From the NCBI GenBank assembly GCA_964512315.1, contig CAZEIK010000002.1, forward strand, positions 45,304-109,303: a DNA stretch of 64,000 bases, given 5' to 3'. Every line of letters begins with the position of its first letter. Within the stretch, counting starts at the first letter, position 1. This DNA comes from an uncultured Candidatus Saccharibacteria bacterium. Its GTDB lineage: Bacteria > Patescibacteriota > Minisyncoccia > Phycocordibacterales > UBA5272. Below, in pieces: positions 21,826 to 31,316 of this stretch. The notes under the pieces are model-generated. The model ran no database searches, was not told the origin of the DNA, and saw only the letters and a program-made list of their open reading frames with translations. Position numbers and translations under genes: made by a program.

Positions 21826-22317
21826 TCAAATTGTTTTTAAATATGCAAGGGCTGCTAGTCCTGACGCCACCGCATCGTATTCATCATCTAGCCCAGTCTT
21901 AGCAACATGCTTACTAATTAGCTTAACCATTTTAATAACCTGATCCTTTTTTGCATTACCAACACCAGTCACAGCTAGCTTTATTTTCTGTGGGGTCATC
22001 TCTACGATTTTTATTCCGCGCCTAACACAAATCAACTTAACAGCCCCTTTAATCTCAGCAACATTAATAACACTCTTTGCGTTGTCGTGCATAAACACAG
22101 ACTCGACACATAATATTTCTGGGTGATATTCATCTAGAACTTTTTCAAACTCACTTATAACTTGCATAAGACGCGCCTCAAAAGTTAAAGTTTTGGATGT
22201 CTGAAAGCAGTCAGAGAATAACACGGAGTCTTTATAATTCTCTCTAACAACAACTGCGACACCAAAACGATCGAACCCTGGATCAACAGCAACCACAACA
22301 GTTTTATTTTGCTGCAT
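21826..22317 (-). CDS. ruvC: Holliday junction resolvase RuvC
   Basis: N-terminal VVAVDPGFDRFGVAVV. 163 aa. Overlaps the ruvB stop. Confidence 0.85.
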   Translation of the reverse strand: MQQNKTVVVAVDPGFDRFGVAVVVRENYKDSVLFSDCFQTSKTLTFEARLMQVISEFEKVLDEYHPEILCVESVFMHDNAKSVINVAEIKGAVKLICVRRGIKIVEMTPQKIKLAVTGVGNAKKDQVIKMVKLISKHVAKTGLDDEYDAVASGLAALAYLKTI

Positions 22318-23287
22318 AGTCTTTACCTTTCTGTGTTAGTTGTCTTCCGCGTGTGGTTTTTTCTATTAGACCCATTTGTAAGAGATACGGCTCTAATACA
22401 TCTTCTAGCGTACTCTCTTCCTCTGAGAGTGCCGCCGCAAGAGTAGAGAGTCCAACCGGGCCGCCCGAGAATTTATCTAATATAGTTTTTAAATACTCTC
22501 TTTCGTTGTGACCCAAACCTTCCTCATCAATTTCTAAAAGGTCTAAAGATTTTTTTACTGTAAAAACATCAAGAGGCAACTCATGAACCTCAGCATAATC
22601 ACGAGCACGCTTGAGGTAGAAGTTGGCAATACGTGGGGTGAATCTCGAGCGCTTAGCTATTTCGAGGGCCGCCTCGTGAGATATTTTTGCTCCAAGCTTC
22701 TCTGAGCTCTTCTCCACAATTTGCGCCAACTCTTCTAAGGTGTAGAATTGTAAACGGTATACACCACCTGAGAATCTTGATCGCAGTGGTGACGAGAGTA
22801 GCGACACACGTGTTGTGGCACCAACAAGAGTAAATGGCGGTATGTCTAATTGTATACTTCTTGCGGCTGGACCTTTGCCGATAATAATATCAAGAACACC
22901 TGATTCCATTGCAGGATATAGCACCTCCTCAATCATTTTGTTAAGGCGGTGTATCTCGTCGATGAACAGAACATCATGCGGTTGCAAGTTGGTTAATATA
23001 GCAGCCAAGTCACCAACTTTTGTAAGAGTGGGTCCAGATGTTACTTTTATATTTGTATTAAGTGTTCTTGCTACTATGTGAGCGAGAGTTGTTTTACCTA
23101 GTCCTGGTGGACCATATAACAAAATATGCTCAGGGGGCGTTCCGCGTGAGAGGGCTGCGCGTAAGAGTACGTCTATATTTTTTTTAATCTGGGTCTGACC
23201 AATATAATGTTCAAAAGTTGTCGGGCGAAGGCTCGAATCTAGATGTCTACTCTCCTCATTTTTAACTTCTTCTTGACCACTTGACAT
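22304..23287 (-). CDS. ruvB: Holliday junction branch-migration ATPase RuvB
   Basis: LLYGPPGLGKTTLAHIVA Walker A, FIDEIHRL Walker B, arginine finger region. Confidence 0.95.
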   Translation of the reverse strand: MSSGQEEVKNEESRHLDSSLRPTTFEHYIGQTQIKKNIDVLLRAALSRGTPPEHILLYGPPGLGKTTLAHIVARTLNTNIKVTSGPTLTKVGDLAAILTNLQPHDVLFIDEIHRLNKMIEEVLYPAMESGVLDIIIGKGPAARSIQLDIPPFTLVGATTRVSLLSSPLRSRFSGGVYRLQFYTLEELAQIVEKSSEKLGAKISHEAALEIAKRSRFTPRIANFYLKRARDYAEVHELPLDVFTVKKSLDLLEIDEEGLGHNEREYLKTILDKFSGGPVGLSTLAAALSEEESTLEDVLEPYLLQMGLIEKTTRGRQLTQKGKDYAAK

Positions 23288-23478
23288 AGAATTTAATTAT
23301 GTTATAATTGTCCACAGTTCAATCTTTTAAAAAGCTCGTCAATCTTTAAGCAATCGGGTTCGCCCATACTTCTATTACGAAGGACGTTTTGGTTCTAAAG
23401 CATTTGCTTTACTACTGCGGCTATCCTTATGTAGGAAATATTCTTCACCAAGGGGTTGTTTAAAGATTAATGAGCTTT

Positions 23479-25173
23479 TTATTTTTCGTACAGATCAACA
23501 ACTGTTCCCAACTCCTCTAGCGAGGTGACCCCGTCTAGTACCTTCATTATACCATCTTCTCTCATTGAGGGTATCATTTGTTTTGCCGCTACAGCTTTTA
23601 TCTCTCTTTCACCAGCACCACCAACAGCAGCAGTCTCTATTTCTCCTGTCATTTGTATTGCTTCGTATATACCAGTTCTACCTTTGTAACCATTGTTGCA
23701 CTTATCACAACCCCCATCCTTGGCTACAAATATTTGATATATTTTTTGTGGTGGATGAGCTACGTCTTTACCTTCGGAGACCATGTTACCAATTACATCA
23801 GTTATTAATTTTGACTCTTCTGCTGTTGCGTCTCTTCTTTCTTTACAATTTACACACAACTTCCTACACAATCTTTGTGCCATTACAAGAGTAAGCGACG
23901 AGGCTAATGTCTTAGCATCAACCCCGAGGTCTATCATGCGAGGTATTGATCCTGCTGCCGAGTTGGTGTGTAGGGTAGAGAGTACTATGTGACCAGTTAG
24001 TGCCGCGCTCGCTGCTACCTTTGCTGTGTCTTCATCACGGATCTCACCCACCATAATTACATCTGGGTCTTGGCGTAATGCAGCACGCAGTCCGAGTAGA
24101 AAAGTGTAATCTTTTTTCTGGTCGACTTGTGTCTGGGTTATTCCGTCTAAGTGATACTCGATAGGGTCTTCGATAGTGATTATTTTTTTCTCAGATGTGT
24201 AGACTTTACGAAGACAGGCATACAAAGTTGTAGACTTACCTGATCCAGTTGGTCCAGTAGTTAAGACCATACCATAAGGCTTCTTTATTGCGCGGTCGAG
24301 TACACCTAACACCTTTTCATTCATACCTAACTGGTCAAATCCAACATTAGCAGCCTTAGGGTCCAAGATTCTCATTACATAATTTTCACCATAATTGCCA
24401 GGCACAACCGACACACGCACTTCTATTTTGTCTCCGCCCCAATCAATTTCAAATCTTCCATCTTGCGCAGACTTTTGTATAGAGAGCTTCATCCCGGCGA
24501 GCAGTTTAAGACGACTATTAAGTAAATTAAAAGTCTTTTCATCAGTGAAGAATATATCTTGTAGGGCGCCATCTATACGATATCTAACTTTCACAGTGCC
24601 ATCTTCTGGTTCTATATGTATATCGCTCGCGGTGAAGTGTATGGCACCAACTAGTGACATCTCAATTATTTTCGAAACTCTCTCTCTGTCACTATTCATA
24701 ATAACTTGTTCCAACTTATCCCTGAATGTCTGCAGGTTGCTAACATCCTCCAGCAACTCCCTTAAGTGAGACTCGCTTAGGTTGACCAACCCCCTTTCTA
24801 CAACCGTCCCAGCATCCAGGTCAGCGTAACGCGCCCACACTTTTTTAACTGACGTATCAGATGCAATATATATTATCGGTTTATCACCTTTGTTAGAAAG
24901 CTTCGCCAAGTACTCAACAACATCGTCACGAGTCGGGTCTGATATTGCTATGTGAAGCTGTCTACCAACCATTTTAAATGGAGCAAAGGAGTATTTTTGT
25001 GCATCTTCTAAGGGGAGTGCTGCTAGCGCATCCATTTCAGGAGACTTAATACGAAGGTCTATGTAAGGGAGACCTGTTTGGGCAGCCAGGAACTCCGCCT
25101 CTTTTTCTTCATCTTCCGCAGCCAATTTGTTCAGGCTTGTTTTGATTTTTAGCTCTGCAATATCATCGATCAT
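23479..25173 (-). CDS. pilB: type II secretion/type IV pilus assembly ATPase (GspE/PilB family)
   Basis: Walker A LTTGPTGSGKSTTLYACL, Asp/His boxes and a C-terminal tetracysteine (CxxC...CxxC). 564 aa. Confidence 0.85.
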   Translation of the reverse strand: MIDDIAELKIKTSLNKLAAEDEEKEAEFLAAQTGLPYIDLRIKSPEMDALAALPLEDAQKYSFAPFKMVGRQLHIAISDPTRDDVVEYLAKLSNKGDKPIIYIASDTSVKKVWARYADLDAGTVVERGLVNLSESHLRELLEDVSNLQTFRDKLEQVIMNSDRERVSKIIEMSLVGAIHFTASDIHIEPEDGTVKVRYRIDGALQDIFFTDEKTFNLLNSRLKLLAGMKLSIQKSAQDGRFEIDWGGDKIEVRVSVVPGNYGENYVMRILDPKAANVGFDQLGMNEKVLGVLDRAIKKPYGMVLTTGPTGSGKSTTLYACLRKVYTSEKKIITIEDPIEYHLDGITQTQVDQKKDYTFLLGLRAALRQDPDVIMVGEIRDEDTAKVAASAALTGHIVLSTLHTNSAAGSIPRMIDLGVDAKTLASSLTLVMAQRLCRKLCVNCKERRDATAEESKLITDVIGNMVSEGKDVAHPPQKIYQIFVAKDGGCDKCNNGYKGRTGIYEAIQMTGEIETAAVGGAGEREIKAVAAKQMIPSMREDGIMKVLDGVTSLEELGTVVDLYEK

Positions 25174-25221
25174 GCTTATATTATAACCAATAAAATCTAT
25201 ATAAATATAATCTTTTACACC

Positions 25222-25249
25222 TTGACAAAAGTATTATTTAGTGTATACT
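25222..25249 (+). promoter_or_regulatory. near-consensus sigma70-type promoter (TTGACA-N16-TATACT) upstream of the lipoprotein gene
   Basis: TTGACA at 25222-25227 and TATACT at 25244-25249 with a 16-nt spacer. RBS AGGAGA precedes the ATG at 25316. Confidence 0.4.
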
Positions 25250-25315
25250 AGTGTTAGTAATCTGATCATTCATTTTGCGGTGAGATAATATCAACAACCC
25301 GCCAAGGAGACGCGA

Positions 25316-25624
25316 ATGCGTTCAATTTTCATTATCGCAGGACTCGCTTCGCTCGCCTTATCAGGCTGTGTTACGATTGTTGCGCGAGAACAACCGGCGC
25401 AACAGGCGGTCTATTACCGCCAAGCGCCAGCACCTGTTGTAAATGGCCTTCCTCAAGGTTGTCAGCGCACCATTTACGGTACGCACTGCAATCAGGCGGA
25501 TGGTTACATCCTCCAGGCGCCGCAAGTGCCAGGCCGCACGGCTCAGCCGGGTGCCGGTCAGCCGACTTGCCCCTACGGTGGTACGCTACGCACAGTCAAC
25601 GGACAACTCTTGTGTGTCCGCTGA
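25316..25624 (+). CDS. small Cys-containing lipoprotein (high-GC island gene 1)
   Basis: Signal peptide with lipobox LALSGC, AGGAGA RBS, roughly 62% GC codon usage with strongly GC-biased third positions. Confidence 0.55.
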   Translation: MRSIFIIAGLASLALSGCVTIVAREQPAQQAVYYRQAPAPVVNGLPQGCQRTIYGTHCNQADGYILQAPQVPGRTAQPGAGQPTCPYGGTLRTVNGQLLCVR

Positions 25625-25706
25625 CACCAACTTTCACTTTTAGGGTACCGGGACTGTGATCACTCCCAAGCGCTCGCTTATCCTTCCCCGGACGAGCTGC
25701 TGATAT

Positions 25707-25741
25707 TCCCTGAACGGACCCCTGTGGTCCGTTTTTCTTTT
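25707..25741 (+). terminator. rho-independent terminator
   Basis: Stem ACGGACC-CCTGT-GGTCCGT followed by TTTTTCTTTTT. Confidence 0.5.
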
Positions 25742-25776
25742 TATATAAAGTAATAAAAAATATTAAATGTATAGTC

Positions 25777-25804
25777 TTGACAAAAGATTAAAAACATGTA
25801 TACT
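25777..25804 (+). promoter_or_regulatory. second copy of the near-consensus promoter (TTGACA-N16-TATACT)
   Basis: TTGACA at 25777-25782 and TATACT at 25799-25804. Shares CTTGACAAAAG.ATT...GTATACT with the promoter at 25222. Confidence 0.4.
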
Positions 25805-25905
25805 TATACACAGAGGTTTTGAGAAATTATCTTGAATAAATTAGGGTAATTTACAAAACTTTACTTTCACAACCAACGCGGCAGCCCGCCGCAAAAGGAA
25901 AATGT

Positions 25906-26862
25906 ATGGCAGCAGCTGCCCCCCGCCCCGTCGCCCCTCGAGTTCGTCCCGCTGCGCATCGCCGCAGTTGGACGAAGTGGCTCAAGTATGCAGGATACAC
26001 CATCTTCGCTCTGCTTGCAGCTGCCTTTTTACTCTGGCTCGCGGCATTGATGTTCTCACCGGTTATCAGCTGGTGGAACACGTCGTCGTTCAGCGCATGG
26101 TCTTCGGATCGTGCGTTGGCGTCAGCCCGCGACAACTTGAGTGCAAATCGCAAAGTCGCGAACAACAGCGGTCGCATCAAGGCGATCGACAGCAAAACCC
26201 CTGATCTCGTCGACTCCGCCAACACGGCAGGCGAGCGAGCTGAAGGAAAAACCTTAACTCGCCAGCTGGCGAGAGAGCGTGCCGCTACGGTTCGAGATCA
26301 GGCGGCAGAGATGAAAAACTCAGCCGCGGTATCTCGTGCCGATGCAGCCGAGATAGCCCTCTCTGCTTGTGACGACGGTGATGATGCTTGCATTGAGCGA
26401 GCCCTCAAGCTTCTGCGCCCACCGTTCATGGTGAAGCAGGAAATGGATGAGCTCGCGGCTGCGAAAAAAGCAGCCGAAGATGCGAAAGCTGCCCAAAAGG
26501 TGGCTGAGGATGCTCTTGCGAAAGAGAAAGCCAAGCCAGCAAAGGTGGTTCGTATTCCTGGTCCTACGGTGTACTTGCCGCAACCAGTGGCCACGCCACC
26601 CTCAGCAGCTCTGGCAATCGTCCCGTCTCGCCCAACTACTACACCAGCAGCACCGTCCAGCGGAGCTGTGCCCTGCACATTTAGCCGGCACGGTGTCGCG
26701 ATCGAGACGTTCACCGTCTCGTCTGGAGAGGAATGCAAGAGAGCGACGTTCGAAAAGAACGAAGCCTTCATCTTCCGTGAGTGCGTCCAAAAGTGGGGGC
26801 AAGACCACTGCATCAAGCAGCGAGATATTCGCAAGCAGGCGCAAGGGCAAAACTCTTGGTAG
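25906..26862 (+). CDS. Ala-rich single-pass membrane protein (high-GC island gene 2)
   Basis: 318 aa. TM helix YAGYTIFALLAAAFLLWLAALMF, then charged Ala-rich helical region, a Pro-rich segment (PQPVATPPSAALAIVPSRPTTTPAAPSS) and a Cys-containing C-terminal domain. GC-rich. Confidence 0.5.
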   Translation: MAAAAPRPVAPRVRPAAHRRSWTKWLKYAGYTIFALLAAAFLLWLAALMFSPVISWWNTSSFSAWSSDRALASARDNLSANRKVANNSGRIKAIDSKTPDLVDSANTAGERAEGKTLTRQLARERAATVRDQAAEMKNSAAVSRADAAEIALSACDDGDDACIERALKLLRPPFMVKQEMDELAAAKKAAEDAKAAQKVAEDALAKEKAKPAKVVRIPGPTVYLPQPVATPPSAALAIVPSRPTTTPAAPSSGAVPCTFSRHGVAIETFTVSSGEECKRATFEKNEAFIFRECVQKWGQDHCIKQRDIRKQAQGQNSW

Positions 26863-26879
26863 GAATTTCCCTACCGCAA

Positions 26880-26912
26880 AGGTCCGTCGTAACGACGGCC
26901 TTTTTTTATTTT
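26880..26912 (+). terminator. rho-independent terminator
   Basis: GGTCCGTCG-TAA-CGACGGCC hairpin followed by TTTTTTTATTTT. Confidence 0.5.
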
Positions 26913-26973
26913 GACAACAAAACTTTTTGTTGTTAGTGTTTAGTAGTCTTTAACTATACAAGGAGCAAGAGAC

Positions 26974-27444
26974 GTGACGTTCTTTAAAACAATTTTTATG
27001 TTGGCAAGCTTTCTGCTTGCCGGTGTGGCTGCCTCTCAGGTCTGTGAGTTGAGTAAGGGTTGCAATGACCCTAACAGCATCGGTGCCAGGGTTACCTTGC
27101 CCGGTGTTGGTGTTAAGGCGCCGCCACCAGCAAACACAGCTTCTGTCACGCAGAATATTGGTGTAGGTGTTGACGTCAAAATCATCCCCGAGATCACCTC
27201 CGTGACGGTGGACAGCTCTCGTTTGCGAGGTATCTGCATCTCGTGGGAAAATGGCGAGCCGTGTCCGGCAGCAAAGGCAATTGACTCACCGGTCAGGGAG
27301 GTAAAAGCTTCGGAACAAAAACCGAAACAACTCAAACCCTCAAAACAGGCAAGTCGTTCAAAAGTTGCAACGGTGACTATTCCGGCTTCCGAATATGAAA
27401 AACTCGTCAAGAGTTGCAGCAAACCAGCAGCACAAAAACCTTAA
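26974..27444 (+). CDS. secreted Cys-motif protein, paralogue A (high-GC island gene 3)
   Basis: GTG start 8 nt after AGGAG. Signal peptide FMLASFLLAGVAAS. Motifs C-x-L-S-K-G-C-N-D-P-N and ISWENGEPC are shared with the next gene. Confidence 0.5.
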   Translation: MTFFKTIFMLASFLLAGVAASQVCELSKGCNDPNSIGARVTLPGVGVKAPPPANTASVTQNIGVGVDVKIIPEITSVTVDSSRLRGICISWENGEPCPAAKAIDSPVREVKASEQKPKQLKPSKQASRSKVATVTIPASEYEKLVKSCSKPAAQKP

Positions 27445-27459
27445 TAGGAGAGAAGTGAG

Positions 27460-27879
27460 ATGAGAAAGCATTTGTTGTCGTTATGGCTCTTTCTTTCGGT
27501 GTTGGCAATGCCAATCTTTGCAGAAGAAAGGGAAGCGGGACTGTGTCAGGGTTGCAAAGACCCTAACGCAATCTCAACAACCATAAAACTGCCCACACCT
27601 AGTGTGCAGTCGCCACCACCAGTTACATTGCCGCCCGTGTATCAAGACGTGTATCAGCCGGTTGTGCAGCGTATACACCCTCAGATCGTTTCTGTGCAGG
27701 TGGCGGAGACGGTTGGTGTTGTGTGTGTTAATTGGCAGAACGTGCCTTGTTCTTGTGCTGTTGCTCCGGCACCAGACATGCGCAGGTGCGCCATCCATAA
27801 AGGGCGTCCAGATTTAGGGTTTTTCCCAGGTTTGTTTTCCCAAAATGGCTGCGAGGAAGAGCGGGCACGAAGAAAATGA
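27460..27879 (+). CDS. secreted Cys-motif protein, paralogue B (high-GC island gene 4)
   Basis: Signal peptide LLSLWLFLSVLAMPIFA. Shares C-QGC-KDPN-I...LP...V..PPP...I.SV.V...C..W.N.PC with the preceding gene. Confidence 0.5.
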   Translation: MRKHLLSLWLFLSVLAMPIFAEEREAGLCQGCKDPNAISTTIKLPTPSVQSPPPVTLPPVYQDVYQPVVQRIHPQIVSVQVAETVGVVCVNWQNVPCSCAVAPAPDMRRCAIHKGRPDLGFFPGLFSQNGCEEERARRK

Positions 27880-27905
27880 TGCTTGACCGGCGGTTTTCCG
27901 CCAAG

Positions 27906-28661: not shown

Positions 28662-28670
28662 CTTGACATC

Positions 28671-31232
28671 TTGTCAAATATAGATTATAATATGAAAACC
28701 CTAAAAAGTGTAATAAATAAAGGAAATATGAAAAAAATATTATTTAGTTTAATTGGTTTCTCGATGCTTGTTTCTGGGTTTTCTTTTGTAGTGTTTGCCC
28801 AGGATTGTTCTGATTGTGGATATAACTACACCGACGAATATAATGGACCTGGTTATAATTACGGATACAACTATACCGACGAGTATCAAGGGCCAGGGTA
28901 TAATTATAATTTTAATAATTCGTGGGATACAAATACGCAAATAAATTGTACTTCTTGTGGTTTGAATTACAACTATACCGATGAATATCAAGGACCAGGT
29001 GGTTACGGATATAATTTTACAGACAGTTACCCTGCACCAACAACACCAACTAATACTGGGGGGATATATGTTGGTGACTGTAGTTATACTAACGATTGCT
29101 ACACACCACAGACTACAACATATGTACCGACATATACGAACACTACTACATATGTTCCTACTTATACCAATACATATGTTCCGGTATATACAAACGGTAG
29201 TACATATTATGGTACTTATTACACCCAACCTACTTACACCAATACTTATAATCCTGTATACACGACATGTCCTTCGAATGCTTACTGTCCACCAACAACA
29301 ACGCCAGCTCCTGTATACCGCGTTCCAACCAACTCATATCCACCTTCTACAGTAACAACACCTAGCAATAATTCTAGCTATTGGAATTATAACTACAACA
29401 GTACGACCAACACTAACACAACAACTAATACTAATAATAGTGTTACATACGGTCCAGCTTACACTTATACAAATAACACTTGCGCAGGAACAAATAACTG
29501 TAATACAACAGTTAACAACACAACTAACACAACAAATACAACAGGAAGCAATAATGTAAATTATTATTATGGTAACACCACAAACCCAACGCCTGTATGT
29601 ACCAATGGTGCGACCAATTATCCAGGATGTACAATATGTCCAACAGGTCTTGTTTACAGTAATGGTTATTGTATAACTAACATTACTACTAATAACTGTC
29701 CTACTAATTACTATTGGAATGGAACAAGTTGTGTACCACAAACTAGAACATGTCCGAATGGAACAGTGGTGAGTATATGGGATGTTTGTCCAAATCAAAC
29801 ACAAACATGTTGGAATGGAACAGTTATACCAGTATCGTCAGTATGTCCTTCTCAATACAAAACATGTCCAAACGGAACAGTGGTACTAATAAGCCAGCAA
29901 TGTTACAAGACATGTTCTAATGGAACAACGGTACCTGACACACAAGTGTGTTACAGAGTGTGTCCAAATGGGCAATCTATACCGGAGACACAATATTGTC
30001 CATCGTATAACAATTATCCAACAGTAGACATTAACGCTAACCCGAGCGTGATAAGCCGTGGAGGTAGCACAACATTAACTTGGACAAGTCAGAACGCTTC
30101 ATACTGTACTGCATCTAATGGCTGGTCAGGAAGTGTTAACCTGTCAGGATCAACACAGAGAGTGAATGTCTTAGATGCTACAACTTATTCTATTAGATGT
30201 TGTAACTCTCAGAATCAATGTGCAACAGACAGCACAACAGTGAATGTTACTCAGCCATTACCAACATCACATCGCGTGGTAACAACATCAGCAACAGGCA
30301 TAACAAATACTAGTGCTCGTTGTAATGGTGTTGGAATTATTTCAAACGGAGTTGTATCTAACGGATGGTTCGAGTACGGTGAGACCACATCGCTAGGCAA
30401 AGTAACTAACAGTGCCTCAATCGGCAATCAACCATCTTCACCTTTCTCTAACACTATTAATAACTTAAAACCAAATACTACATATTATTGTAGAGCGGTA
30501 ATGAGTAATGCTAATGGTACATATAGAGGTGAGATAGTCTCGTTCAAGACAACTGGTTCAGTTATTAACTATGTGCCAGTAACGCCAACAAAAACTCCAA
30601 ACAAAACAGTCGTTGTTTGTACTGACGAAACAGGAACAAAAGAGACTTTAAAAGAAGGAGAGAAGTTGATGACTATAACTTTAGACAAAAGATCAGGTAA
30701 CACAACACCGGGATCTACGGTTGATTATCGTGTGCATTATCTGAACACAAGTAAGATCAAGTTAAGTAATGCAACGGTCAAAGTTGTAATACCTAGCGAG
30801 ATGGAGTTCGTATCTAGTAATCGTGGTATGTATGATGCAGACACAAGAACTGTAACAGCAGACCTAGGCACTGTGGGTGCTGGATCCTCAGATGACTTGA
30901 TCGTCAGAGTAAAAGTTAAAGATAATGCCGAGACTAACAAGTCAGCAGTAATGAGTAGCTATATTTCATACGACGCATTAGACCAAAAAGGCCAAACAAT
31001 TCGTGATGAGAACACTTCTTATGTAATCAGCACAATAACCAAAGCTGAGCAGAATAATAATGTTTCAAATACAGACAATAATAATTCTGCACAAAAATCA
31101 ACACAAACAGATAGATCGTATTTGCCTAATACAGTTCTAGAGTGGCTAGCAATAATCGCATTAATATTCGTTCTGATTGTCTTAGGTAAGGCAATCTGGA
31201 CAGGATTAAAAGGCGAGGAGCACAGTCACTAG
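28671..31232 (+). CDS. large repetitive Cys/Asn/Thr/Tyr-rich cell-surface protein with FN3-like and DUF11-like domains and a C-terminal membrane anchor
   Basis: Signal or TM at the N-terminus. Tandem NYTDEYQGPG repeats, TYVPTYTNT repeats and at least 5 C-P-N-G-T-V-V...C repeats. WFEYGETTSLG...TTYYCRA (fibronectin-III-like) and DYRVHYLNTS...TVKVVIP (DUF11-like). C-terminal hydrophobic helix LAIIALIFVLIVLG. Confidence 0.7.
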   Translation: MSNIDYNMKTLKSVINKGNMKKILFSLIGFSMLVSGFSFVVFAQDCSDCGYNYTDEYNGPGYNYGYNYTDEYQGPGYNYNFNNSWDTNTQINCTSCGLNYNYTDEYQGPGGYGYNFTDSYPAPTTPTNTGGIYVGDCSYTNDCYTPQTTTYVPTYTNTTTYVPTYTNTYVPVYTNGSTYYGTYYTQPTYTNTYNPVYTTCPSNAYCPPTTTPAPVYRVPTNSYPPSTVTTPSNNSSYWNYNYNSTTNTNTTTNTNNSVTYGPAYTYTNNTCAGTNNCNTTVNNTTNTTNTTGSNNVNYYYGNTTNPTPVCTNGATNYPGCTICPTGLVYSNGYCITNITTNNCPTNYYWNGTSCVPQTRTCPNGTVVSIWDVCPNQTQTCWNGTVIPVSSVCPSQYKTCPNGTVVLISQQCYKTCSNGTTVPDTQVCYRVCPNGQSIPETQYCPSYNNYPTVDINANPSVISRGGSTTLTWTSQNASYCTASNGWSGSVNLSGSTQRVNVLDATTYSIRCCNSQNQCATDSTTVNVTQPLPTSHRVVTTSATGITNTSARCNGVGIISNGVVSNGWFEYGETTSLGKVTNSASIGNQPSSPFSNTINNLKPNTTYYCRAVMSNANGTYRGEIVSFKTTGSVINYVPVTPTKTPNKTVVVCTDETGTKETLKEGEKLMTITLDKRSGNTTPGSTVDYRVHYLNTSKIKLSNATVKVVIPSEMEFVSSNRGMYDADTRTVTADLGTVGAGSSDDLIVRVKVKDNAETNKSAVMSSYISYDALDQKGQTIRDENTSYVISTITKAEQNNNVSNTDNNNSAQKSTQTDRSYLPNTVLEWLAIIALIFVLIVLGKAIWTGLKGEEHSH

Positions 31233-31269: not shown

Positions 31270-31302
31270 AAAAGGCGGCCCGCGAAGCGGGCCGCCTTTT
31301 GT
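31270..31302 (+). terminator. rho-independent terminator (hairpin GGCGGCCCGC-GAA-GCGGGCCGCC)
   Basis: Perfect 10-bp GC stem flanked by an A-run and a T-run. The same core hairpin recurs at 50542. Confidence 0.6.
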
Positions 31303-31316
31303 GTTAAAATACTAAT

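Follow-up and report, generated by a model that had tools for sequence, protein, structure and literature searches.

A putative membrane-anchored, stalked surface protein with a variable distal region in Paceibacteria-type Patescibacteria

Gene Structure and Coding Sequence

A 64,000-nt stretch of DNA from an uncultured Candidatus Saccharibacteria bacterium (assembly GCA_964512315.1, contig CAZEIK010000002.1, positions 45,304 to 109,303; hereafter the window) carries a gene for a large, repetitive surface protein, which is the subject of this analysis. The predicted precursor contains, in order, an N-terminal signal peptide, a region of short repeats, a string of Cys-bracketed hairpins, three beta-sandwich domains, a polar linker, and a hydrophobic helix followed by a short charged tail (Table 1). 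This domain order and the tail support a preliminary description of the product as a surface protein that is secreted, anchored at its C-terminus, and composed of repeats and several domains. We favor, with a probability of about 0.55, its interpretation as a conserved, single-copy coat protein of Paceibacteria-type Patescibacteria (candidate phyla radiation, CPR) that is permanently membrane-anchored, stalked, and fibrillar-adhesin-like.

The open reading frame (ORF) found mechanically begins with a TTG codon. Because the -10 box of the promoter ends at 28691, one base before an ATG at 28692, both TTG 28671 and ATG 28692 should precede the expected start of the transcript or coincide with it. 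The true start is probably ATG 28728, and the N-termini of homologues, which read MK....hydrophobic...(A/V)xAQ, agree with it. The end of the predicted signal peptide, ..FAQ or ..AQ, is common to many homologues, and the residue that follows it here is Asp. The encoded protein is rich in Thr (16.8%), Asn (12.2%), Ser (9.1%), and Tyr (8.2%), and contains 33 Cys residues (3.9%).

Compared with a 97%-identical strain (L001), the gene shows 65 synonymous and 10 non-synonymous codon differences, with 8 of the 10 falling in a single replaced block. This ratio identifies the ORF as a real, constrained coding gene and, together with the existence of a protein family, rules out that it is an artefact of non-coding or low-complexity sequence. 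The gene was also judged not to be horizontally acquired: its G+C content at third codon positions (GC3) is 0.28, at the low end of the window range, and it is the upstream cassette that is atypical.

Table 1. Features of the surface-protein gene and its product. Positions are those of the window; amino acid (aa) numbers follow the 853-aa frame.
Feature	Position (nt)	Strand	Remark
Perfect sigma-70 consensus promoter, TTGACA-17-TATAAT	28663..28691	+	12/12 match
Mechanical ORF	28671-31232	+	853 aa, TTG start
Shine-Dalgarno-like AAGGA ahead of ATG 28728	28720..28724	+	By eye from sequence
Most likely coding sequence, ATG start	28728..31232	+	834 aa + stop
Predicted Sec-type signal peptide, MKKILFSLIGFSMLVSGFSFVVFAQ	28728..28802	+	aa 20-44; by eye from sequence
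Repeat type 1 (R1), (G)YNYTDEYxGPG	28818..29045	+	4 copies; CxxC pairs at aa 46/49, 93/96
Repeat type 2 (R2), TYVPTYTN(T)	29112..29270	+	5 copies
Asn/Thr-rich low-complexity stretch	29343..29591	+	ACN microsatellite-like DNA
Cys-bracketed beta-hairpin units	29592..30011	+	8 units, 3 degenerate + 5 clean; predicted fold
Ig-like beta-sandwich, PTVDINANP...LTWTSQNASYCTASNGWSG...	30015..30266	+	Optional module; aa 449-532; pLDDT >90
FN3-like beta-sandwich, ..ARCNG..WFEYGET..LG..TTYYCRAV..	30267..30560	+	Most conserved ectodomain, 0.76
DUF11/CLIPPER domain (PF01345), CnaA-like Ig fold	30621..31040	+	HMM match aa 674-763
Low-complexity polar juxtamembrane linker	31041..31118	+	pLDDT <50; model residues 493-514
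Juxtamembrane motif Y-L-P-N-T-V-L-E-W	31119..31145	+	Family conservation
Predicted transmembrane helix, WLAIIALIFVLIVLGKAIW	31143..31199	+	AlphaFold2 helix aa 822-848
Predicted charged cytoplasmic tail, TGLKGEEHSH	31200..31229	+	By eye from sequence
Intrinsic terminator, hairpin GGCGGCCCGC-GAA-GCGGGCCGCC then TTTT	31270..31303	+	dG -23 kcal/mol

Promoter and Terminator

The gene is preceded by a consensus sigma-70 promoter without a mismatch. Two perfect TTGACA-N16-18-TATAAT sites occur in the window, against 0.07 expected by chance. Promoters and terminators were also surveyed in 46 complete orthologous genes, with the promoter sought within 160 nt upstream. A 12/12 promoter is present in 31 of these orthologues and a match of at least 11/12 in 38, and a 3' hairpin with T-run and a folding energy of -10 kcal/mol or lower follows 34 of them. 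Because the gene has both a consensus promoter and its own terminator, we infer a monocistronic and strongly transcribed unit, its expression level being judged from the promoter. The protein is probably abundant. Secreted proteins with Ig folds are among the most expressed genes of cultured Paceibacteria (PMC10936435).

Beta-Sandwich Domains of the Membrane-Proximal Half

An AlphaFold2 model of aa 303-853, built from an alignment of 38 sequences, contains the string of hairpins, three beta-sandwiches (predicted local distance difference test, pLDDT, >90), a disordered linker, and a 27-residue helix. The mean pLDDT of this model is 82, and that of a further model with the hairpins is 76. Among the three sandwiches, the Ig-like domain is an addition to the domains described before. 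It has no match in Pfam and is present in approximately 27% of family members, and it is also repeated in many unrelated proteins.

The second sandwich had been called FN3-like, and this call is plausible at the level of the predicted fold and unproven at the level of the family. In hidden Markov model (HMM) searches of Pfam, the module stays below the gathering threshold (GA) of both candidate families, with 20.8 bits for Pur_ac_phosph_N (PF16656; E=5.8e-4, GA 30) and 14.4 bits for fn3 (PF00041; E=0.045, GA 25). Among the 38 relatives, 7 match Pur_ac_phosph_N (E ≤ 0.01) and 6 match PhoD_N. When the three-domain model was compared to the Protein Data Bank (PDB) with Foldseek, FN3 tandems of fibronectin, titin, and LAR were among the top matches, with E values of about 1e-7 to 1e-6. 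The same search also returned integrin legs, complement MG domains, and giant bacterial adhesins. Because integrin legs and complement MG domains match as well, these hits indicate a generic Ig/FN3-type sandwich.

The third sandwich is a DUF11 domain, as the preliminary description had suggested. Whole-protein scans against Pfam and NCBIfam yielded only DUF11, below threshold. The score is 23.2 bits for the whole protein, 33.1 for aa 303-853, and 37.3 for the isolated domain (GA 24.6); the whole-protein score falls under the threshold because of the low-complexity N-terminus. DUF11 was matched in 29 of the 38 relatives. The family has been renamed CLIPPER and characterized by structure; its members have a CnaA-like Ig fold, build the stalks of fibrillar adhesins, and often contain an intramolecular isopeptide bond (Costa et al. 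2025, PMC12617251). This bond joins Lys to Asn with a catalytic Asp and is found in many members but not all. Searches of PDB sequences with the DUF11 region and with the family profile gave no usable link, either to the solved structure of a CLIPPER domain (9IFR) or to another chain. In the family alignment, the Lys (L-[DE]-K) is common, with Arg in some members, and D-E-N at aa 779-781 stands where most relatives have D-E-V. The Asp of what we take to be the usual CLIPPER consensus, D-x-L-P, seems to be replaced here, where the sequence reads V-I-P-S-E; the canonical Lys/Asp/Asn triad would be hypothetical in this protein.

Cys-Bracketed Hairpin Repeats

Upstream of the sandwiches lie the Cys-bracketed units. 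These units are real, and there are eight of them, not approximately five; the earlier range (~29740-29995) covers the five clean ones. Their Cys pairs are C310-320, 323-334, 343-354, 361-373, 380-392, 399-411, 415-427, and 431-443 (nt 29598-29999). The units are 16-19 aa long and follow the consensus x-x-T-C-P-[ND]-G-[TS]-x-V-P-x-x-Q-x-C. Repeats were evaluated by counting off-diagonal 9-aa windows with at least 7/9 identity in a protein self-comparison, against 200 composition-preserving shuffles. The Cys-bracketed units give 11 such windows compared to 0.01 in the shuffles, while the C-terminal domains give none.

In the AlphaFold2 model, each unit consists of two short paired strands closed by the Cys pair (pLDDT 75-90). 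The unit has no match in Pfam, and Foldseek retrieved no matching fold from the PDB (best E = 0.22). This C-P-[ND]-G-[TS]...C repeat is undescribed in Pfam, NCBIfam, PDB, or the literature searched. With their predicted layout, a rod of short tandem beta-hairpins each closed by a disulfide, the units resemble EGF/LDLR-A arrays, follistatin/FN-I modules, and the Myxococcus Cys-rich repeat DUF4215. The number of units ranges from 0 to 29 per family member. The same Cys repeat is present in one unrelated protein architecture (P0053/P0054); a profile search with the repeat gave 875 candidates, none of which scored, and is uninformative on the spread beyond the family. MdbA-like disulfide oxidoreductases and VKOR are enriched in CPR genomes (PMC6744442), which makes extracytoplasmic disulfides plausible.

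The protein contains many N-x-S/T sequons, as previously noted, with 41 observed and 25.4 ± 4.1 in shuffles (1.6-fold). Within the hairpins, their role as glycosylation sites is doubtful. Over 372 units from 58 members, the turn position is occupied by Asn in 42% and by Asp in 34%, and only 30% of the units form an N-G-[ST] sequon. Because Asn and Asp both occupy this position at such frequencies, N-G-T in the hairpin is read as an Asx-Gly beta-turn and not as a conserved glycosylation site.

A further Cys, Cys650 (30618-30620, ..VVVCTDETG..), is nearly invariant and located just before DUF11, with the family consensus I-C-S-D-G-S. It has no evident partner among the 33 Cys of the protein and lies in a hairpin that resembles half a unit of the Cys repeat. 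Cys650 could be a free thiol or form an intermolecular disulfide.

Distal Repeats and Sequence Variation

Two further repeat types occupy the N-terminal region. R1 (NYTDEYxGPG) has copies at aa 52, 67, 101, and 115 (nt 28824-29045), with 25 windows compared to 0.00 in shuffles. R2 (TYVPTYTN) has copies at aa 150-198 (nt 29118-29265), with 20 windows compared to 0.21. All three tandem-repeat types of the preliminary description are thus above composition-matched shuffles in the protein self-comparison. At the DNA level, Tandem Repeats Finder (TRF) detects a 45-nt core of R1 in two copies at 28818-28906 and little otherwise. Close Cys pairs also occur upstream of the hairpins, at aa 46/49, 93/96, 137/143, 200/206, and 271/277. 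A Pfam scan of the Thr/Asn/Tyr-rich low-complexity repeats (aa 45-302) gave no match.

Between species, the N-terminus cannot be aligned, yet its Thr/Tyr/Ser/Asn/Gly/Pro composition and its PTY periodicity are kept, a PTY-type periodic motif being present in the N-terminal region of most homologues. Full-length members range from approximately 590 to 1150 aa. Three in-frame 6-nt indels distinguish the gene from that of strain L001; two fall within the ACN-rich stretch, and the other affects 29041-29046. In addition, one block, at 29266-29341, is replaced. The copy number of the named repeats is unchanged in this strain. Length variation, which had been proposed for the gene, is therefore seen in the indels and the replaced block and in the 0-29 hairpin units across species, but not in the copy number of the named repeats between the two strains.

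The replaced block (aa 199-224) reads TCPSNAYCPPTTTPAPVYRVPTNSYPP here and a shorter VPTTGNTYTQTYR in L001, and it adds the Cys pair C200/C206 in the window strain. It could have arisen by recombination or by compensating frameshifts.

Phase variation had also been considered likely. Under such a reading, the protein would be a contingency adhesin whose switching or rapid length change is driven by DNA repeats. The in-frame 6-nt indels in ACN-rich tracts, the replaced block, and the great differences in repeat copy number between species are consistent with it. The gene, however, contains no simple-sequence tract of four or more units, its only homopolymer runs being A7 (28731) and G6 (29058). 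No exact repeat exceeds 14 nt, the DNA copies of the repeats are 70-91% identical, and the repeat units differ in synonymous codons. Every indel is in frame, the named repeats are stable in the 97% strain, and purifying selection is strong. We consider a contingency adhesin very improbable, and on/off switching is largely refuted. The distal half shows evolutionary length drift with no sign of an on/off switch.

C-Terminal Tail and Proposed Membrane Anchor

The preliminary description had ended the protein with a hydrophobic helix and a tail, SYLPNTV, that is not a canonical LPxTG signal, and both statements hold. The helix was modelled by AlphaFold2, and the SYLPNTV motif has no Gly and no match to the NCBIfam LPXTG models. 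The family consensus of the tail is [FL]-[FLM]-P-x-[TS]-L-[IV]-E-W with an invariant Pro and Trp, and the helix is followed by G-R-S-I-Y-x-S-Y-K-[DE] or ..YK(D/E)(D/E)..HH. Conservation over 54 members, expressed as the mean frequency of the top residue, is highest in the helix (0.78), with 0.76 in the FN3-like and 0.56 in the DUF11 domain.

Of 80 genome loci, 66 contain the tail motif exactly once, and among ORFs within 10 kb of the gene in the 80 loci, the only others with the tail or the hairpin repeat are fragments of the surface-protein gene. When 1.84 billion representatives were searched exhaustively with HMMER, the tail was found in only 86 clusters, nearly all at the extreme C-terminus. 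In some of these it follows other ectodomains, such as one or two FN3-like domains alone, an IPT/TIG-like domain, or four FN3-like domains with DUF11. Because it is attached to differing ectodomains, the tail is regarded as a modular anchor element. A word-indexed search with the tail profile yielded nothing but short fragments of genes of this family and is silent on modularity.

Among the proteins that carry the tail, P0107, P0110, P0111, P0114, P0117, P0118, P0119, and P0128 are secreted and all end in ..FLPxTLxEW followed by the helix. They are approximately 240-360 aa long, with one of 792 aa, and contain a single FN3-like 'WFEYG' module, an IPT/TIG-like domain, or DUF11 together with four FN3-like domains. 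This suggests a family of surface proteins with a common type of anchor.

An L-P-x-T-like motif, followed by a helix and a positive tail (WLAIIALIFVLIVLGK...K..), raises the question of whether the protein is a substrate of a sortase or another transpeptidase, cleaved after the Thr of LPNT(V/L) and linked to peptidoglycan. The order of the L/F-P-x-T/S motif, helix, and basic residue follows the LPXTG layout, and the tail is modular, being found on at least four other architectures. A sortase is encoded by more than half of CPR genomes (PMC6744442), and a PBP1-type peptidoglycan synthase is encoded near the gene. By contrast, the fifth residue of the motif over the 67 tails listed is L, V, I, F, or M and never Gly, and no NCBIfam LPXTG or CTERM model was matched even at E ≤ 10. 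When three divergent tails were compared to the NCBIfam sorting-signal models (LPXTG, PEP-CTERM, IPTL-CTERM, PGF-CTERM, GlyGly-CTERM, and others) at this threshold, only chance matches to transmembrane segments appeared. No credible ORF with a sortase-like TLxTC motif is present in the window, and in four related loci, the genes called within 10 kb include no member of a sortase Pfam family. Sortases are also patchy outside Microgenomates (PMC6744442), whereas the family described here spans 168 Patescibacteria species genomes. The Glu and Trp after the motif are highly conserved, as is the whole helix. High conservation is unusual for the part of a sortase substrate that is discarded. Because the helix itself is so conserved, a permanent membrane anchor with specific intramembrane contacts is favored over a cleaved signal, and a transpeptidase substrate appears quite unlikely to us.

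Family Distribution and Genomic Neighborhood

A protein search retrieved 56 clusters, all of them lacking a functional name; where an organism is named, it is given as Nomurabacteria or Paceibacteria. A scan in which each species was represented by a single genome found 168 relatives, and the named hosts among the 80 listed loci are all Patescibacteria. As judged from these searches, the family is known only from Patescibacteria and is unannotated. Synteny is kept down to approximately 35% identity. The gene order is PBP1, tRNA synthetase, ruvC, ruvB, and a pilB-like ATPase gene on the minus strand, followed by three to five genes for small secreted proteins, the surface-protein gene, tsaE, and polA. 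The small secreted proteins are conserved in the 97% strain only and not in more distant loci. For this reason, they are regarded as a variable cassette and not as conserved partners, and a conserved chaperone or partner gene upstream was rejected.

A GC-rich patch at 25200-27900 separates the pilB-like gene from the surface-protein gene, with a G+C content of 0.47-0.58 compared to approximately 0.40 and a GC3 of 0.49-0.59. It contains a small lipoprotein-like ORF (25316-25624) and also encodes an Ala-rich membrane protein of 318 aa and two secreted Cys-containing paralogues (26974-27444 and 27460-27879) that are 34% identical. A Pfam scan of the proteins in the patch gave no match. Related genomes retain this slot, though not what it contains. 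The pilB-like gene (23479-25173, minus strand) encodes a T2SSE/PilB-type ATPase (PF00437, E = 1.5e-119) and adjoins the surface-protein cassette in each of the four related loci that were analyzed. Beside it, no gene for a type IV pilus was detected; the immediately flanking ORFs that were scanned are ruvB on one side and ORFs for unannotated small proteins on the other.

The only other perfect sigma-70 promoter in the window (23281-23308, plus strand) is located between ruvB (22304-23287, minus strand) and the pilB-like gene. It is followed by approximately 170 nt in which no ORF exceeds 24 aa and which end in a T-run. The RNA of this region (23281-23495, plus strand) has a folding z of -6.2 and is closed by a long stem. 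In 19 related loci, a highly conserved version of the region occupies the same place, with compensatory changes in 11 of 37 predicted pairs. Rfam returned nothing for it up to an E value of 10. We consider the region a candidate for an undescribed small structured RNA of Paceibacteria.

Proposed Architecture and Comparison with Known Systems

In the proposed architecture, the precursor would be exported by the Sec pathway through its N-terminal signal peptide, after high transcription of the monocistronic gene from its sigma-70 promoter. The protein would be retained in the cytoplasmic membrane by its C-terminal helix and short charged cytoplasmic tail. Outward from the membrane, the flexible linker would be followed by the CLIPPER/DUF11 domain, the FN3-like domain, and the optional Ig-like domain, beyond which eight disulfide-stapled beta-hairpins would form a rod. 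Repeats rich in Thr, Tyr, Asn, and Pro, approximately 260 aa in all, would make up the distal tip; they are probably extended and may be glycosylated or adhesive. The membrane-proximal half is conserved. The distal half is rebuilt between species by gain and loss of hairpins and by turnover of short repeats. Such a layout is that of a fibrillar adhesin or cell-coat protein, which would present a variable tip to a host cell or substrate.

CLIPPER domains build fibrillar-adhesin stalks (PMC12617251), and these adhesins share with the protein a signal peptide, an Ig-like stalk with DUF11/CLIPPER, an elongated build with repeats, anchoring at the C-terminus, and a distal end that varies. The combination of stalk and anchor that defines a fibrillar adhesin is present here as predicted, with three beta-sandwiches, eight hairpins, and a transmembrane anchor. 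Unlike the described adhesins, the protein has one CLIPPER domain instead of a tandem array, no recognized adhesive tip domain, and a conserved transmembrane helix instead of an LPXTG or outer-membrane anchor, and its gene is core and syntenic and has a consensus promoter. LPXTG proteins of the MSCRAMM type are similar in their signal peptide, repeats and Ig-like domains, L-P-x-T-like motif, hydrophobic helix, and charged tail. They differ from the present protein, in which the motif is [FL][FLM]Px[TS]L[IV]EW without Gly, the helix is the most conserved part, no LPXTG model is matched, and no sortase gene is nearby.

Archaeal S-layer glycoproteins are a third comparison. Proteins such as Haloferax volcanii SLG with its PGF-CTERM have a Thr-rich juxtamembrane segment. 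They resemble the present protein in a monocistronic gene of high (here predicted) expression, the signal peptide, Ig-like arrays, a Thr- and sequon-rich segment, and a C-terminal helix after a short conserved motif. The present protein is, by contrast, bacterial, lacks a PGF motif, and has its Thr-rich segment at the distal, N-terminal end. No archaeosortase is known from these genomes.

The same plan of signal peptide, Ig-like domains, Thr/sequon-rich region, and C-terminal membrane anchor leads to the idea that the protein is an S-layer or major envelope-coat protein, whose FN3-like and DUF11 base forms a lattice. The perfect promoter and strong terminator of a monocistronic gene in most orthologues, the one copy per locus at a conserved core-genome position, the conservation of the membrane-proximal domains, and the enrichment of sequons fit such a protein, and S-layers are reported to be prevalent in Patescibacteria (bioRxiv 10.1101/2024.05.28.596244). 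Yet no SLH or other known S-layer family was matched in Pfam or NCBIfam, and the fold matches are to generic strings of Ig and FN3 domains. A long disordered tip and a variable rod are atypical of lattice subunits, and the wide range of hairpin numbers means that the overall height is not conserved. We therefore regard a lattice-forming S-layer protein as unlikely, although an adhesin or S-layer-like protein, as the preliminary description put it, is still the right class of explanation. A bolder version is equally tentative: the family would be the principal S-layer-type coat of Paceibacteria, the tail a new CPR-specific sorting or anchoring signal that a set of surface proteins has in common and that a dedicated partner recognizes, and the hairpins a new class of disulfide-stapled repeat by which the height of the coat is set.

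The interpretation as a permanently anchored, fibrillar-adhesin-like coat protein has several points to its disadvantage. A core, syntenic, single-copy gene resembles a structural envelope component more than an accessory adhesin, and Pfam recognizes no adhesive or ligand-binding domain at the distal tip. High expression is deduced from the promoter, and the gene does not have the codon bias of a highly expressed gene (NNC fraction 0.39 compared to a mean of 0.41). The disulfides and the glycosylation are likewise predicted features, and the sequence by itself would also accommodate cleavage at the LPxT-like motif.

Novelty and Significance

The protein belongs to a known class, that of repetitive Ig-domain surface proteins with a DUF11 stalk domain. 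The family itself, the tail motif, the hairpin repeat, and the conservation of the promoter are new, in that they are undescribed in Pfam, NCBIfam, or the literature searched. As first flagged, a repetitive and perhaps phase-varying surface protein, the gene would be fairly ordinary, and the phase-variation part is unsupported. Both the tail motif and the hairpin repeat can be defined as new models of the Pfam or NCBIfam type.

CPR/Patescibacteria are ultra-small, very widespread, and mostly attached to other cells, and almost nothing is known of their surface cover and attachment. With its conserved, syntenic single copy, its consensus-perfect promoter, which suggests high abundance, its conserved anchored base, and its fast-evolving tip, the family offers a concrete candidate for the chief protein of the surface or of attachment in Paceibacteria. 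As such, it may serve as a target for antibodies, for labelling in cryo-electron tomography (cryo-ET), and for comparisons of host range.

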